From: an uncultured archaeon
Lineage (GTDB): Archaea; Iainarchaeota; Iainarchaeia; Iainarchaeales; CSSED10-239
Direction of reading: 5' to 3'
Length of the DNA stretch: 14,688 nucleotides
Assembly (NCBI GenBank): GCA_964468895.1
Contig: CAYXWT010000015.1
Location: forward strand, 1 to 14,688
The notes beneath the pieces are model-generated. The model saw nothing but the letters and a program-made list of their open reading frames with translations, had not been told where the DNA came from and searched no databases. The translations under genes and the position numbers were made by a program. Of the stretch, positions 2,107 to 10,617 are shown piece after piece; position 1 is the stretch's first letter, and each line of letters begins with the position of its first letter.

Positions 2107-2148
2107 TTTTGTAAATACTAATATTTAAATAAAAAACAGGTGTTTTTA

Positions 2149-2298
2149 ATGGGTAGAGAACTTGCAAGTGGGATTTTTTTAGGAATAGGAATAGGAACAT
2201 ACATACCATCATTGCCTGCACCAATAAGTGTAATTAACTCTTATTTTGGATTAATATTAATTATTATAGGTGTAATTCTTTTATTAAAAAGTAAATAA
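2149..2298 (+). CDS. Small hydrophobic (probably two-helix) membrane protein, 49 aa, not in the ORF track
   Basis: ATG at 2149 is preceded by AGGTG (2138-2142) with a 6-nt spacer. Hand translation gives MGRELASGIFLGIGIGTYIPSLPAPISVINSYFGLILIIIGVILLLKSK, ending at TAA 2296-2298. There are two hydrophobic stretches with a Pro-containing turn. The segment is visibly more G-rich than the flanking spacer. Confidence 0.5.
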   Translation: MGRELASGIFLGIGIGTYIPSLPAPISVINSYFGLILIIIGVILLLKSK

Positions 2299-2305
2299 CT
2301 AAAAT

Positions 2306-3205
2306 TTATTTTTTTAAAGATTTTTCAACATCTTTAAATATATCATTTATTTCCTTAATATTAGGTTTCTTTTTAGGAAATATTTTAGAAAATAAGGATT
2401 TTGAAATTTCTTCTTTTTTTGGATTTTTAAAATTATAAATCTCACTTTCATTACTTAAAAATTTATCTGAATCTTTATTTTTTTGTATAATAGCACTTTT
2501 TATATTTAAATGATCTTGATCCAAAGATTTAGAATTTTTAAAATTAGAATTGGTTTTAGACTCTCCAATTAAACTATTTATAAAATTAGCAATTTTTGGA
2601 GTTTTAACTTTATTTTTAACACAAAATAAAACTTGATTTTGATTCATTTTGAAAATTACTTTTTCAGCAATATCTAGAGAATAATTTTCATCTAGAATTG
2701 CTTGTTTTAATTCATTTTTAGAATAATACTTTGTTTGAGGTAATAGCAAATCATATAAAAAATCTATTGTTTGATCAAATTTAGATTTAAATTTATTTTC
2801 AGAAACCACACTATCTGAAGAACTTGTGATTTTATAAGATTTAAGTTTAGCTTTATATTCTTTAAAATTAGAAAGAAATTTTATAATCTGTTCATATTCT
2901 TTAGCATAATTAAACTGAGCAAAAACATAATCTTCATAATCAATTTCTTTTTTATTATATAATTCATCTATTCTTTTTAAGTGATCTCTAACTTTAAGAT
3001 ATCTTTCAAAGCATTTAGAAGGGTCTTTTTTATATAGTGGAATTATAAATATATAAATTATAAATAAAAAATAGAAAAACGCAAAAACTAATATGAAATA
3101 GAACAAAGTATTACTAGTAAACAACTGAGAAAATAAATGGTAAGACTCTTGGTTTTCTAATAGTTTCTCTCCAAAATAAACGTCTAATATTATTGAAAAA
3201 TTCAT
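2306..3205 (-). CDS. Hypothetical single-pass membrane protein with a Lys-rich, probably helical or disordered C-terminal region
   Basis: A 299-aa ORF with one strongly hydrophobic segment (LFYFILVFAFFYFLFIIYIFIIPLY) near the N-terminus. The remainder is charged and Lys/Asn/Ser-rich. I recognise no family motif. It is the last gene of the same-strand block that starts at 5851. Confidence 0.65.
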   Translation of the reverse strand: MNFSIILDVYFGEKLLENQESYHLFSQLFTSNTLFYFILVFAFFYFLFIIYIFIIPLYKKDPSKCFERYLKVRDHLKRIDELYNKKEIDYEDYVFAQFNYAKEYEQIIKFLSNFKEYKAKLKSYKITSSSDSVVSENKFKSKFDQTIDFLYDLLLPQTKYYSKNELKQAILDENYSLDIAEKVIFKMNQNQVLFCVKNKVKTPKIANFINSLIGESKTNSNFKNSKSLDQDHLNIKSAIIQKNKDSDKFLSNESEIYNFKNPKKEEISKSLFSKIFPKKKPNIKEINDIFKDVEKSLKK

Positions 3206-3254: not shown

Positions 3255-3485
3255 TTATATTGTAATAAATACAATATTATCTCCTCTTAAAAATACTTCT
3301 CCATGTTTTGTTTTAGGTTTATTATTTTCTAACTCTTCAGCATCTTCTAAAACAACATTTAAATGCACATCAAAAGCTTTTAATTTACCTCTTATTTGGG
3401 TACTACCTTTTAATATTATTAAAACTTGTTTATTTATTGATCTATTAAGAGTATCAAAAGGTCTATTTAATTTTAGGTCTACCAT
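3255..3485 (-). CDS. Sm-like archaeal protein (SmAP/LSm)
   Basis: 76 aa. The Sm1 motif is VLIILKGSTQIRGKLKAFDVHLNVVLEDAEE and the Sm2 motif is VFLRGDNIVFI. Size and layout are typical of archaeal Sm proteins. Confidence 0.9.
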   Translation of the reverse strand: MVDLKLNRPFDTLNRSINKQVLIILKGSTQIRGKLKAFDVHLNVVLEDAEELENNKPKTKHGEVFLRGDNIVFITI

Positions 3486-3539: not shown

Positions 3540-4346
3540 TTATTTTGATTTTCTAGAAAATATTCTTGCTAAAAAAGCAAAAAATCCTCTTTTCTTTTTA
3601 TTTTTATTTTTTGAAGTTATAGAGTCTTTACCAGTTATTTTTCTAGCGATAGCTCTAAATGATTCAGAAGAACTACCATTAGCATTATGTATTAATACAG
3701 GTTTTATTTTTTTAAGTAAAAAGGATTGTCTAATATCTTCAGCATAAGGTATTTTTCCATAACAAGGCAATTCTAACATTTTCATTATTTCTTTATCAGA
3801 AATTTCACCTTTTACATTACTAACTTTGTTTACAATTACACCCATTACTCTTTGATTTAATCTTTCTGCAACAATTTTTGCTTTAAAAGCATCAGCTACA
3901 GATGGAGCAGTAGGTTCAGTAACTAAAAGTATTTGAGATGATGCACTCATTGCTGCAAGTACATTTTTTTCAATACCAGCAGGTGAATCTATTAAAATAT
4001 ATTCAAATTTACTTCTAAGTTCATTTACAACTGTAATTAATCTTTCAGAGTCTACTCTTTGATAAGTAGATAATGAAAGTCCTGAAGGTATAATTTTTAT
4101 GTTCTTTGGTCCATCATAAATTGCATCTGTAACAGATGAGGAACCTAATAAAATATCATGTAAAGTTATAGGAGGTGTTTTTAAACCAATTAACAAACTT
4201 AAATTTGCCATAGCTATATCTGCGTCTATTAATAAAACAGAACAATTTAGTTCTGATAAAGCGATACCTAAATTACCTGTGACAGTTGTTTTTCCAACCC
4301 CACCTTTTCCAGAAACAATTGCAATTACGTCACCCATAAACATCAC
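3540..4346 (-). CDS. minD: MinD/ParA-family P-loop ATPase (archaeal MinD-like) with a C-terminal amphipathic helix
   Basis: It has the deviant Walker A VSGKGGVGKTT, LLIDADIAMANLSLLIGL, Walker B-like YILIDSPAG, and IPYAEDIRQS. The C-terminus KKKRGFFAFLARIFSRKSK is a basic and aromatic amphipathic helix. The track start GTG (4344-4346) is followed by ATG at 4341-4343 and ATG at 4335-4337. The last gives MGDVIAIVSGKGG and is the most MinD-like N-terminus. Confidence 0.9.
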   Translation of the reverse strand: MMFMGDVIAIVSGKGGVGKTTVTGNLGIALSELNCSVLLIDADIAMANLSLLIGLKTPPITLHDILLGSSSVTDAIYDGPKNIKIIPSGLSLSTYQRVDSERLITVVNELRSKFEYILIDSPAGIEKNVLAAMSASSQILLVTEPTAPSVADAFKAKIVAERLNQRVMGVIVNKVSNVKGEISDKEIMKMLELPCYGKIPYAEDIRQSFLLKKIKPVLIHNANGSSSESFRAIARKITGKDSITSKNKNKKKRGFFAFLARIFSRKSK

Positions 4347-4362
4347 TATTTAGTATGTAATA

Positions 4363-4815
4363 TTATACAACACAACTTAAATAATTTTCTATATCTTTAA
4401 TTATAACTAAAACTTCCATTTTAGTAAGTCTATCATTTGCTTTTAAAAAATATACTTTTTTATCTTTTTTAAAAATTATTTGCCAACCATTAGCTTCTAT
4501 TAGAATTATACTTAATTCTTTAATTTCACTATTAATATAATTATACATTGCAGCACTTTTAAAACCTTCCTTTAAATTTCTATTAGTACTTGCAATTACA
4601 ATTCCATCTAAATCTGTTATTATAATATCATTAACTAAGTGCTTTTCTCTTAGTTTTTTAAGAAAATCGGTTATATCTTTAGAATACAAATTTAATGGTT
4701 TATAGCACATCATATTTGATAAACCACTATCATAACTTTGATCTTCTATATTTAATAATTTATTTGAAATTTTAGTAATCATTTTTGTAAAACTTTTAAA
4801 CATTTTGAACCACAT
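4363..4815 (-). CDS. Roadblock/LC7 (MglB-like) domain protein with an N-terminal amphipathic extension
   Basis: The by-eye secondary-structure pattern fits the Roadblock fold. Helix DITDFLKKLREKH, strands VNDIIITDLDGIVIAST (the characteristic hhhD.dG.hhA motif), helix FKSAAMYNYINSEIKE, strands LSIILIEANGWQIIFKKDKKVYFLKA, and terminal helix MEVLVIIKDIENYL. The N-terminal MWFKMFKSFTKMITKISNKLL looks amphipathic. No profile search was possible. Confidence 0.5.
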   Translation of the reverse strand: MWFKMFKSFTKMITKISNKLLNIEDQSYDSGLSNMMCYKPLNLYSKDITDFLKKLREKHLVNDIIITDLDGIVIASTNRNLKEGFKSAAMYNYINSEIKELSIILIEANGWQIIFKKDKKVYFLKANDRLTKMEVLVIIKDIENYLSCVV

Positions 4816-4854
4816 TTTAAACAGATGATATAATTTCTAGACAAAAACTGCTTT

Positions 4855-5364
4855 TTAAAGATTAAGTAAATCATCTAATCCTCTTTCATCTAATAATTTC
4901 TTTTGAGAGTCTGGTTTTATTATTTGATCTTTTAAAATTAATTTTACTTTATTAAGATCATAATTTAAATTATTTAAGAAAAAATTCTTTTTTTTAGAAT
5001 TTTTTTTATTAATAGTTTTTATAAATTTAATTTTTTCGTTAAACAGTAATATAAGTTTAATTTGATCTTCACTTAATTCATAAATATCTATAATTCCATC
5101 TTTAGAACCTAAACAATTTAAACAATAATCAAAAGCTTGAGATCCATATCTTTTAATATTATAAATATCAAATAAATAAATACAACCAATTATTTTACCT
5201 TTATCAAAAATAATATAACTTTCTTCAAAACCAAAAGGTGTGTCATTTGTAATAAATATTAATCCAGAAAAAAGATTTTTAGAAAAGTCTAAAATCAATT
5301 TACTTGGTTTGACTTTTTCAAGAAAAACATTTGTTAATATTGGTTTAGTAATTGGTAAATTCAT
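4855..5364 (-). CDS. Hypothetical protein, PATAN/DUF4388-like N-terminal domain, Lys/Asn-rich linker and acidic C-terminal peptide
   Basis: LILDFSKNLFSGLIFITNDT...SYIIFDKGKIIGCIY...YGSQAFDYCLNCLGSKDGIIDIYEL resembles the DUF4388/PATAN pattern (tG.l.v ... iyf.dG.iv.a ... G.eAl..ll.. ..G.f.f). It is followed by the low-complexity INKKNSKKKNFFLNNLNYDL and ends in LLDERGLDDLLNL. The assignment comes from memory of the family pattern only. Confidence 0.4.
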   Translation of the reverse strand: MNLPITKPILTNVFLEKVKPSKLILDFSKNLFSGLIFITNDTPFGFEESYIIFDKGKIIGCIYLFDIYNIKRYGSQAFDYCLNCLGSKDGIIDIYELSEDQIKLILLFNEKIKFIKTINKKNSKKKNFFLNNLNYDLNKVKLILKDQIIKPDSQKKLLDERGLDDLLNL

Positions 5365-5386
5365 ATCTTTTTCTTTTTTCCATTAA

Positions 5387-5851
5387 TTATTTAATAAAAA
5401 CAACTTTATCAACTGTATTTTTAAGAGCAACAGCACTACCTTCATCAACTAAATAAACCATTGTGAATTTACCTTGCCTTTTTGCTTTTAAAATTGCTGG
5501 TAAATAATCTGAATCTCTAGTTATAAAAACAATAGTATCGATATCTTTATTATATGCTGCTTCTGTAGCTTCTACAGCCATACATACATCCACATCTCCA
5601 ACAGTAATTATACTTTCAAAACCTAAATTAACTACTGCTTCTATTAATTTATCTGTAGCATATTGATCTAAAAATACTTTTGCGATTTTTAAATAACCTT
5701 CTTTTAACAAACGTTCTTTTATTTTAGATAAATCAATATTAAATTCTTTTCTTAAAATATTAGGACCATCAACAAAAACTGCAATATTATTTCTTCTAGA
5801 TTTTTTTGGAAATTTACTTTTATCAAAAAATAAATTAGATAACTTAAACAT
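5387..5851 (-). CDS. NYN-domain (LabA/DUF88-like, PIN-related) putative ribonuclease
   Basis: The motifs are NIAVFVDGPNILRK (first acidic motif), GDVDVCMAVEATEAAY and FITRDSDYLPAILKAKRQGKFTMV (the DSD motif), typical of LabA-like NYN domains. GGGTGAG lies 4 nt upstream of the ATG (plus-strand ctcaccc, 5856-5862). Confidence 0.75.
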   Translation of the reverse strand: MFKLSNLFFDKSKFPKKSRRNNIAVFVDGPNILRKEFNIDLSKIKERLLKEGYLKIAKVFLDQYATDKLIEAVVNLGFESIITVGDVDVCMAVEATEAAYNKDIDTIVFITRDSDYLPAILKAKRQGKFTMVYLVDEGSAVALKNTVDKVVFIK

Positions 5852-6092
5852 ATTCTCACCCTATTTAAATATAAACAAATATATCTTAATTTAAAAAGAT
5901 ATACCACACACACCACATTATAGTCTTATAGAACTACAACTTATATTTTAAGTTAATTTCTACAGCGAAATTATTAGTAAAATATTAATTAACATATATT
6001 AATTATAAACAAAACATATTTAAAAACATATTTATATATACTTTATATAACAGAAACTTAATTTTAGGTTATCTTTTAATAAAAAAACAATT

Positions 6093-6110
6093 TTTATAAA
6101 AATATTTAAA
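6093..6110 (+). promoter_or_regulatory. Candidate archaeal TATA box(es) for the aIF5A gene
   Basis: TTTATAAA lies at 6093-6100 and TATTTAAA at 6103-6110. They sit about 40-55 nt upstream of ATG 6149, which would leave a short leader containing AGGTG (6136-6140). This is weak evidence, because TATA-like strings are abundant in sequence this A+T-rich. Confidence 0.3.
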
Positions 6111-6148
6111 CTAAAATTGATTTAGAATTAAATATAGGTGAATATATA

Positions 6149-6541
6149 ATGGGTGATTACGGAATTAAATTTGCACAATTAGGACAACTTAAAGAAAAAC
6201 AATTTATTGTAATTGATGATATTGTTTGTAGAATTGATACAATGCAAAAATCTAAACCTGGTAAACATGGATCTGCAAAAATGAGAGTTGTTGCAACAGA
6301 TTTTTTTACAGGACAAAAAATGAATTTACTTAAACCAACTAGTACAAGTGTAGCAGTTCCAATAATAGAAAAAGGAAATGCACAAATAATAGCAGATTTA
6401 GGTGAGAAATACCAAGTAATGGATGTAATGACATATATAACATATGAAGTAGAAAAAGCAGAATTTAAAGGTCTAGAACCTGGTAGTGAAGTAGAATATA
6501 TGAAAGCTGGTTCTCAAATAAAAATTATTAGAAAGAAATAA
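6149..6541 (+). CDS. eif5a: Translation initiation factor 5A (aIF5A)
   Basis: SKPGKHGSAKMRVVATDFFTGQK contains the conserved hypusination-site motif (KPGKHG). The N-terminal SH3-like half, C-terminal OB-like half and 130-aa length all fit. AGGTGA lies 7-8 nt upstream of the ATG. Confidence 0.93.
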   Translation: MGDYGIKFAQLGQLKEKQFIVIDDIVCRIDTMQKSKPGKHGSAKMRVVATDFFTGQKMNLLKPTSTSVAVPIIEKGNAQIIADLGEKYQVMDVMTYITYEVEKAEFKGLEPGSEVEYMKAGSQIKIIRKK

Positions 6542-9795: not shown

Positions 9796-10617
9796 TTATT
9801 TTTCAAAATATTCTGAATCAACAATTTCTTTTAAATTCTTACTAGTTTTTATTTTAGAATTTGATATCACAAATCCTTTTATTAATTTAGATATTGGCTT
9901 TTTAAATATTAAAAAAACAATTATAATAATTAATAATACTAAAATAACATATCCAAACACATCTAATAAATTTTCATTATTATATAAATCTAATATAACA
10001 AATGTTGGTTTAGGTGGCTTTTTTTCAATAGCAATTAATTTTAATTCATTTGATGAAATCCCAGTCCAACTTAAAACACTATTTTTAATTTCTGCATCAG
10101 GTAAAGTTTCTCCAAAAAATAAAGGGTCATAAAGTTTTACTCTTAAATATGAACCTTTTGGAATTGAATATAAATTATTGGTAACAAAATCTCTAAACAA
10201 ATTCTCATTAAATTTCCAAAATATTTCATCTTCATAATCTAAATATTTAATTAAACACAAATCTTCAATAGAATATTCAATAATAACTGCTTTTTTAACT
10301 TCATCAAAAGTAATTTTCACATCTTTATAATCATTTATATAAACATGTGGTTCTAATTCTGAATCAATTTCTTTTAACTCAGGAATATTAATATTAATTT
10401 CTAGAATTTTTTCTTTAAAAGTTTCTAAATCACTTTCTGAATTAAAATCAAATTTCCAATTTTCTACAATTTTAGCATTATTTGGTGATAAAATATCAAT
10501 TTTAACATCATATGAATTTACCTGTGATGCTGAAATTAAATTGGTATTGGAAATTAAAACTAAAATAAAAATTAAAAATATAAATAAATAACTTTTATTT
10601 TTTATATAACAATTCAT
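9796..10617 (-). CDS. Hypothetical exported or surface protein with an N-terminal signal/anchor and a C-terminal transmembrane helix
   Basis: 273 aa. The N-terminus KSYLFIFLIFILVLISNTNLISASQ is signal-peptide-like. The C-terminus VFGYVILVLLIIIIVFLIFKK is a TM helix followed by a short basic tail. I recognise no family motif. Confidence 0.65.
   Translation of the reverse strand: MNCYIKNKSYLFIFLIFILVLISNTNLISASQVNSYDVKIDILSPNNAKIVENWKFDFNSESDLETFKEKILEININIPELKEIDSELEPHVYINDYKDVKITFDEVKKAVIIEYSIEDLCLIKYLDYEDEIFWKFNENLFRDFVTNNLYSIPKGSYLRVKLYDPLFFGETLPDAEIKNSVLSWTGISSNELKLIAIEKKPPKPTFVILDLYNNENLLDVFGYVILVLLIIIIVFLIFKKPISKLIKGFVISNSKIKTSKNLKEIVDSEYFEK

Follow-up and report, generated by a model that had tools for sequence, protein, structure and literature searches.

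A gene for a MinD-type ATPase in a 14,688-nt stretch of DNA from an uncultured archaeon of the Iainarchaeota (contig CAYXWT010000015.1, assembly GCA_964468895.1; "the window" below means this whole stretch) is preceded on the same strand by genes for a Roadblock/LC7-fold protein and a DUF2226-family protein, and this arrangement recurs in related archaea. We know of no partner that activates or directs an archaeal MinD ATPase. As judged from sequence, the cluster is a ParA/MinD module whose candidate partners have not been described before, and it is limited to some uncultured DPANN lineages. We propose that it is a MinD module conserved within particular lineages of DPANN archaea and specific to them, in which the Roadblock-fold and DUF2226 proteins would act as direct partners of MinD, a reading to which we assign a probability of roughly one half.

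Gene order around a DPANN minD subfamily

The cluster lies on the minus strand of the window (G+C ∼22%). It begins with a gene for an NYN-domain ribonuclease-like protein of the TIGR00288 family (5387..5851), the usual first gene, followed by genes for a DUF2226-family protein of 169 amino acids (4855..5364), a Roadblock/LC7-fold protein of 150 amino acids with an N-terminal extension (4363..4815), an archaeal MinD-type deviant Walker A ATPase (3540..4346) and an archaeal Sm/LSm protein (SmAP, 3255..3485); a gene for a 299-residue protein that hydropathy marks as a single-pass membrane protein (2306..3205) comes after these. The six same-strand open reading frames (ORFs) are positioned as a first-pass annotation of the window had given them, with intergenic gaps of exactly 22, 39, 16, 54 and 49 nt. 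Alignment with homologs makes later true starts likely for MinD (M4, position 4337) and the Roadblock-like protein (M5, position 4803), in which case the DUF2226/Roadblock-like gap becomes 51 nt and the Roadblock-like/MinD gap 25 nt.

Homologs of the DUF2226 and Roadblock-like proteins were looked up, including the most remote Roadblock-like members (E 2e-8 to 9e-5), and an independent scan anchored on MinD covered one genome per GTDB species, as a sample among the stretches listed rather than a census. The idea that the neighboring genes form a syntenic set was borne out: the order [NYN]-DUF2226-Roadblock-like-MinD-Sm is present in at least 16 distinct loci, the window and 15 others (labeled L001 onward where they must be told apart). 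In 16 of 16 loci, the DUF2226 gene has the Roadblock-like gene as the next one downstream. minD comes directly after the Roadblock-like gene in 14 and near it in the other two, where the intervening sequence contains a 52-amino-acid ORF (1080-1238 of L007, GCA_016234835.1) or, on the opposite strand, a PP-loop ATPase gene (L092). The NYN gene stands first in 13 of the 16 loci; L008 and L013 lack it, and L007 is truncated on that side. The carriers are Ca. Iainarchaeum/Diapherotrites (Iainarchaeota), Micrarchaeota and unclassified DPANN metagenome-assembled genomes (MAGs), and the flanks vary among loci (PheRS/enolase, AglB/GT4/Nre, MCM/agmatinase, TatD). Because the order recurs with differing flanks, the gene adjacency is more than chance. 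Identity to the window proteins drops as low as 38% (MinD), 44% (Sm), 47% (NYN) and 27% (DUF2226), and for the Roadblock-like protein it falls below BLAST detection; in the synteny comparison as a whole, the two candidate partners reach 22-30% or go undetected by BLAST. The DUF2226 and Roadblock-like proteins evolve much faster than MinD; fast-evolving partners are common for ParA/MinD ATPases.

The association also appears to be specific. In hidden Markov model (HMM) searches, the 76 remaining MinD/ParA loci among those listed (26 archaeal and 50 bacterial) had no DUF2226 or Roadblock-like neighbor. The archaeal comparison loci came from Methanoregula, Methanobacterium, Methanothermococcus, haloarchaea, Woese-, Pace-, Nano-, Aenigmat- and Nanohaloarchaeota, together with a paralogous locus from an Iainarchaeum genome (L050); this second MinD paralog is without these neighbors, and no DUF2226 gene was found by HMM near the sampled Methanoregula, Methanobacterium and Methanothermococcus MinD loci. 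Each Roadblock-like family member that was looked up adjoins minD, including the weakest (E 9e-5). The first-pass annotation had allowed that a canonical small GTPase might prove to be the conserved neighbor instead. None was called at any of the 16 loci, where the conserved NTPase neighbor is MinD, and Pfam and NCBIfam scans detected no small GTPase among the window ORFs. As that annotation had also held, no window ORF has a Pfam or NCBIfam match to MinC or MinE. Literature searches found no paper linking MinD with Roadblock proteins and none describing this cluster; a word search combining PATAN and Roadblock returned only noise.

A shared gene order of this kind might also be that of a housekeeping superoperon, comprising the five genes with aIF5A nearby, that is kept by descent or for co-expression and whose DUF2226 and Roadblock-like products do not act on MinD. 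In favor of this, NYN, Sm and aIF5A have housekeeping roles in RNA or translation and are themselves conserved neighbors; every locus belongs to a DPANN lineage related to the others; the L092 insertion shows that the block tolerates splitting; and NYN was lost in L008 and L013 with the rest left intact. These points are countered by the survival of the DUF2226-Roadblock-MinD-Sm order at 25-40% protein identity despite repeated reshuffling of the flanks, and by the occurrence of the narrow Roadblock subfamily only beside this minD subfamily in each case examined. Moreover, a different conserved small gene is located upstream of minD in other DPANN lineages, which suggests that this is a functional position. 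We consider the superoperon reading unlikely.

The MinD, Roadblock-fold and DUF2226 proteins

The MinD protein was correctly called in the first-pass annotation. It matches TIGR01969 (minD_arch) at 7.5e-76 with 254.6 bits (cut-off 201.75), scores above gathering for Pfam ParA, AAA_31 and CbiA, and has A. fulgidus MinD-1 (1HYQ, 1.3e-57) as its best relative in the PDB. The deviant Walker A motif SGKGGVGKT, which includes the signature lysine (4287..4313, minus strand), is invariant in the ortholog alignment, and the motifs SGKGGVGKTT (deviant Walker A), DADIAMANL (Walker A' DxD) and LIDSPAG (Walker B) are each invariant in 8 of 8 MinD orthologs. At the C-terminus, a Lys-rich linker leads into the amphipathic helix RGFFAFLARIFSRKSK (3543..3590, minus strand), a predicted membrane-targeting sequence with a hydrophobic moment (muH) of 0.63-0.68, mean hydrophobicity of 0.3 and net charge of +2. 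A GFFxxLxxLF motif is kept at this end of all eight MinDs, with L259 and F263 invariant. By its motifs MinD is catalytically intact, and it probably binds the membrane by way of this helix.

The 150-residue protein was modeled with AlphaFold2 (AF2) at a mean predicted local distance difference test (pLDDT) score of 79.5, with values of 82-93 in the core. The core (residues 45-150; 4366..4683, minus strand) has the order a-b-b-a-b-b-b-a, with DSSP assigning H48-59, E63-68, E73-76, H81-97, E103-107, E111-117, E120-126 and H132-149. The top 50 Foldseek matches in the PDB are exclusively Roadblock, MglB, LAMTOR and dynein LC7 proteins (E from 6.5e-5, probability 1.0; target-normalized template modeling scores of 0.5-0.73 against Roadblock proteins); named matches include the Streptomyces Roadblock 3KYE, MglB (6HJM/6H5B), Asgard Roadblock (9JUE/7F8M), dynein LC7 and LAMTOR. 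Searching PDB sequences with the family profile gave six matches, all of them dynein Roadblock and all marginal (E 0.019-0.17). The window protein itself has no match to Pfam Robl_LC7 (PF03259) at E<=1 and no significant Pfam or NCBIfam match at all; Robl_LC7 is weakly matched by 4 of 43 family members (best E 0.0043), which places the family outside the Pfam threshold. With a core pLDDT of about 90 and the uniform Foldseek result, the earlier Roadblock/LC7-like call is upheld at the level of the fold, and the model indicates that the protein is a divergent member of the Roadblock/LC7/MglB fold. The subfamily is narrow, comprising 48 clusters among 1.84 billion representatives in an exhaustive profile search.

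Preceding the core is an N-terminal extension (residues 1-44; 4684..4815, minus strand) consisting of a cationic amphipathic helix and an acidic turn. An extension of ∼40 residues is found in about 43 of 43 family members. Its hydrophobic face is conserved at positions 13, 16, 17, 20 and 21, with K/R at 14, 15 and 19, and the turn D-D-T-x-x-P-x-E-Q follows the helix in most lineages. The segment FKSFTKMITKI has a muH of 0.77 and a charge of +3, so that amphipathic helices are present at both places where they had been anticipated, the MinD C-terminus (0.63-0.68) and the Roadblock N-terminus. AF2 confidence is low over the extension (pLDDT 50-53). Within the core, E134 in the last helix is invariant in 43 of 43 members, and W111, H59 and G71 are highly conserved.

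The fold raises the question of whether MinD is the client at all. A Roadblock-GTPase switch could operate in trans, with a small MglA/Arf-type GTPase encoded elsewhere as the client, perhaps with DUF2226 as a PATAN-like partner, and the adjacency to minD would then reflect a role in one and the same pathway, for instance polarity or division. All characterized Roadblock regulators act on small GTPases, and the structural neighbors of the DPANN protein include MglB, LAMTOR and Asgard Roadblock. MglA/MglB genes are often located near PATAN genes (10.1101/2021.06.11.447907), and archaea use small-GTPase oscillators (Dip/Arco). However, a GTPase domain occurs in 0 of the 16 loci among the called genes, a count that covers the loci and not the rest of the genomes. 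In addition, the Roadblock subfamily is divergent (below the Robl_LC7 threshold) with a unique N-terminal extension, and DUF2226 is without detectable similarity to PATAN. We judge a switch acting in trans to be distinctly unlikely.

The 169-residue protein had been labeled PATAN/DUF4388-like in the first-pass annotation. This assignment found no support. The protein matches Pfam PF09987 (DUF2226) at 1e-6 with 28.9 bits (cut-off 22), covering model positions 28-110 of 252, and the DUF2226 model is matched by 27 of 42 close and 12 of 15 broad relatives (best E 2.3e-10). Neighboring proteins in L007-L010, L091-L093 and L013 are likewise annotated or scored as PF09987. The DUF4388 model PF14332, by comparison, is matched by none of these 57 close and broad relatives at E<=10, although HMMER filters may hide very weak DUF4388 matches. 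A tblastn search with a less AT-biased DUF2226 member against plasmids, aimed at annotated DUF4388 genes, gave chance matches only. The spacing of the G-x-h-x-h and G-x-h-x-x-A motifs is loosely like that of PATAN, and neither profile nor structure comparison gave evidence of a relationship. With no Pfam DUF4388 match and no structural neighbor, the PATAN label is unsupported, though not disproved. The possibility that DUF2226 is a cryptic, MglC-like Roadblock paralog was rejected, as hhalign comparison of the two family alignments returned a probability of 0.6%. A literature search found no paper mentioning DUF2226.

The AF2 model of the DUF2226 protein is confident (pLDDT 85.9), and Foldseek found no structural neighbor of it in the PDB or BFVD. 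Overall, the protein combines a compact alpha/beta core, a variable Lys-rich linker and a conserved C-terminal peptide. The core domain (residues 1-118; 5011..5364, minus strand) contains blocks with pLDDT 90-96 in the order b-a-b-b-b-b-a-b-a-b, with the conserved motifs F-x-G-Y, G-x-E-E-G, G-x-I-x-G, A-x(5)-N and L-x(3)-Q-x(2)-L-x(3)-F-N. The C-terminal peptide KKLLDERGLDDLLNL (4858..4902, minus strand) is a candidate short linear interaction motif. The pattern [KR]-x-[DE]-L-[LF]-x(3)-G-L-x-x-L is kept at the C-terminus of distant DUF2226 members after a variable linker, which is Lys-rich or, in L009, Pro-rich and ∼150 residues long. The low pLDDT over the peptide (63-66) fits a flexible tail.

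Flanking genes and other minD neighborhoods

Pfam confirmed the NYN nuclease and Sm gene calls of the first-pass annotation, with NYN (PF01936) at 4.1e-23 and 82.9 bits (cut-off 24.2) and LSM (PF01423) at 2.1e-23 and 82.2 bits (cut-off 23.4). TIGR00288 scores the NYN protein at 2.4e-52 and 177 bits, marginally under its cut-off of 178.45. A Shine-Dalgarno-like GGGTGA precedes the NYN start, and a T-rich tract follows the Sm gene. Sm is the tightest neighbor of this minD subfamily, lying directly downstream in 15 of the 15 loci that extend far enough. The minD stop and Sm start abut or overlap in L008 (7478/7480) and L092 (7565/7562), and Sm remains with minD in L092, where minD is split from the Roadblock-like gene. 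Linkage of the two genes to the cluster had earlier been viewed as possibly incidental; for Sm, the counts do not bear this view out.

The position of these two genes allows an RNA-centered version of the module, in which MinD would position or scaffold an RNA-processing assembly of the NYN RNase and an Sm ring, with the DUF2226 and Roadblock-like proteins as adaptors. The 15 of 15 linkage of Sm 3' of minD, its persistence when the cluster is split, and the first place of NYN in 13 loci all fit this arrangement, and ParA/MinD (A/D) ATPases serve to place a wide variety of protein cargo (PMC11407121). NYN, however, is dispensable in two loci. Furthermore, no MinD/ParA system is known to have a ribonucleoprotein (RNP) cargo. 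An RNA-centered module is improbable in our estimation, and it overlaps with the direct-partner model, as it specifies only the cargo.

On the other side of the NYN gene, the divergently oriented aIF5A gene (6149..6541, plus strand; Pfam IF5A-like_N 5.3e-17) is separated from it by a 297-nt intergenic region (5852-6148). aIF5A, often with agmatinase, is also found upstream of or near the cluster in L001, L006, L008, L091, L092 and L093. aIF5A is probably outside the module, and the conserved neighborhood may extend to translation-factor genes.

The 299-residue membrane protein downstream of Sm has a maximum 19-residue Kyte-Doolittle hydropathy (KD19) of 3.03 at residues 37-55 and belongs to no Pfam family. 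Its homologs (311-374 amino acids) are limited to the close relatives L001-L005 and L011, with a marginal match in L007. Beside it, on the opposite strand, is a hydrophobic ORF of ∼50 amino acids (window 2140-2298) that is also called in L001-L005 and has no family assignment. Two further window proteins are without a Pfam family: a 220-residue protein (1350-2012) encoded between the enolase gene and this small membrane ORF, and a 273-residue protein (9796-10617) downstream of the phenylalanyl-tRNA synthetase (PheRS) genes with a signal-like N-terminal segment and a C-terminal transmembrane segment. The remaining window genes encode enolase, aIF5A, the PheRS alpha and beta subunits, a metallo-beta-lactamase (MBL)-fold protein, RNase Z and LonB; no tRNAs are present in the window. 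A sigma-70 promoter scan gave 27 sites versus 38 expected, and an intrinsic-terminator scan gave a single terminator-like site, which falls within minD; both scans are uninformative for an AT-rich archaeon.

In Woese-, Pace- and Nanoarchaeota, another conserved protein of ∼146 residues is encoded directly before minD on the same strand (L018 4367-4807, L020 929-1354, L022 4552-5004, L025 4558-4998, L028 4473-4979, L033 4543-5010, L035 4558-5004 and L052 4486-4974). It is helical as judged from sequence, belongs to no Pfam family and carries the pattern EKISADHLLYVSLKYTKTCDVI..NL..RW...EFRKNV.LKV. Often located just upstream of it are a gene for a second family of ∼155 residues (L022 4074-4550, L033 4000-4500, L052 3994-4458) and a NAC gene. 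The ∼146-residue and NAC ORFs were considered as divergent versions of the DUF2226 and Roadblock-like genes and were rejected as such, the former being all-helical and the latter NAC, i.e., other, non-homologous families. The ∼146- and ∼155-residue proteins may represent an analogous, non-homologous set of MinD partners in other DPANN lineages. Two additional loci, L030 (4523-4975, uncultured archaeon) and L032 (4479-4955, Aenigmatarchaeota MAG), have a further type of minD neighbor, a multi-pass membrane protein of ∼150 residues encoded directly upstream, which contains an HExxH motif and weakly matches Peptidase_M50B (E 6e-4).

Proposed mechanism and relation to known systems

ParA/MinD dimers formed with ATP bind their matrix through the C-terminus, and the N-terminal region of a neighboring ATPase-activating partner usually engages the dimer (PMC11407121). 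In the mechanism that we propose for the DPANN module, MinD with ATP bound would dimerize and attach to the membrane by its C-terminal helix. The Roadblock-like protein, which like others of its fold is presumably dimeric, would touch the MinD dimer through its cationic N-terminal peptide, and this contact would either stimulate ATP hydrolysis and membrane release or recruit MinD to a site. DUF2226 may serve as a co-regulator or cargo adaptor, using its core domain and the C-terminal GLxxLL peptide. Given that partner N-termini engage ParA/MinD dimers (PMC11407121), the cationic extension of the Roadblock-like protein fits the role of an activator. The invariant linkage of Sm and the frequent linkage of the NYN RNase leave room for an RNA or RNP cargo, alongside division, envelope or attachment machinery. 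The more specific version, in which the Roadblock-fold protein would be a MinE-like activator and membrane-release factor of MinD acting through its N-terminal peptide, with DUF2226 as the effector or adaptor, is put forward tentatively and is considerably less likely to be right than wrong.

Several considerations weigh against the direct-partner reading. To our knowledge, Roadblock proteins act only as regulators of TRAFAC-class GTPases, and there is no precedent with a SIMIBI ATPase. Co-transcription of the cluster is inferred from the short gaps, and the opposite-strand gene in L092 indicates that strict co-transcription is not required. Reduced DPANN genomes can keep gene order by descent, and the housekeeping nature of the NYN, Sm and aIF5A flanks leaves room for a non-functional superoperon. 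Finally, the N-terminal helix of the Roadblock-like protein could equally be a plain membrane anchor, as the first-pass annotation had proposed for it.

The cluster offers two small soluble candidate MinD partners that can be tested in vitro without culturing the host. If the Roadblock-fold protein does regulate MinD, the range of the Roadblock/LC7/MglB fold would extend from small GTPases to ParA/MinD ATPases, and this would be the first Roadblock fold to control an ATPase of the SIMIBI class in place of a small GTPase. The proposed mechanism, if true, would also supply the first complete partner set of an archaeal MinD and a function for DUF2226, a family for which neither literature nor structural relatives in the PDB or BFVD were found. 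The module could then be a minimal self-organizing positioning system in DPANN cells, with the Sm and NYN genes hinting at an RNP cargo. It bears on the self-organization of these ultra-small cells, given that Dip/Arco places the divisome in other archaea.

Among archaeal systems, the Haloferax volcanii proteins MinD4 and MinD2 position motility machinery and shape cells, with MinD4 using a C-terminal membrane-targeting sequence. Like the DPANN protein, they are members of the archaeal MinD family, and we know of no ATPase-activating partner for them. They belong, however, to other MinD subfamilies, and the sampled haloarchaeal loci (L029 and L038) are without DUF2226, Roadblock-like and Sm neighbors. 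The cargo is probably not that of MinD4 and MinD2, as DPANN cells are very small and for the most part non-motile. The Dip/Arco GTPase oscillator, which places the divisome in FtsZ-based archaea and also occurs in part of DPANN, consists of the Ras-superfamily GTPase DipA, the DUF2073 SepF-like DipB and the Zn-ribbon/intrinsically disordered protein DipC, according to two preprints of 2026 (PMC13228585; 10.64898/2026.07.23.738820). This Min-like spatial regulator of archaea resembles the DPANN module in being a three-gene operon for a membrane-binding NTPase and two small partners. Identity of the two was rejected, as the Dip components (GTPase, DUF2073, Zn-ribbon) are unrelated in sequence. 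With the divisome placed by Dip/Arco, and with MinD4 and MinD2 acting on motility and shape, a division-site role for the DPANN MinD should not be assumed.

The resemblance to MglA/MglB, LAMTOR-Rag and the Asgard Roadblock pairs lies in a Roadblock/LC7 fold encoded beside a nucleotide-dependent switch protein, whereas the adjoining NTPase is here a SIMIBI-class MinD ATPase and not a TRAFAC small GTPase. Unlike classical Roadblock proteins, the DPANN protein has the ∼40-residue N-terminal extension and scores below the Robl_LC7 threshold. By every criterion checked in sequence (no cognate GTPase, a score below the Pfam threshold, an extra extension), it is not an MglB-type GTPase-activating protein. 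PATAN (DUF4388) proteins are small alpha/beta regulatory domains encoded beside Roadblock genes, as is DUF2226, although a family relation between them is unsupported.

As in bacterial MinCDE, the MinD ATPase ends in an amphipathic helix and its gene is closely grouped with those of two small partners, here putative, and the Roadblock-like partner, like MinE, has a cationic amphipathic segment at its N-terminus. In contrast to MinCDE, the DPANN cluster has no MinC or MinE homologs and is for this reason not a MinCDE system; its putative partners are a Roadblock-fold and a DUF2226 protein encoded upstream rather than downstream of minD. A similar logic is seen in McdA/McdB, FlhG/FliM-FlrA, ParC/ParP and PomZ/PomXY. 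The partner folds of those systems are unrelated to Roadblock or DUF2226, but they too combine an A/D ATPase with small, fast-evolving partners encoded by neighboring genes, and it is the N-terminal region of the partner that contacts the ATPase dimer.

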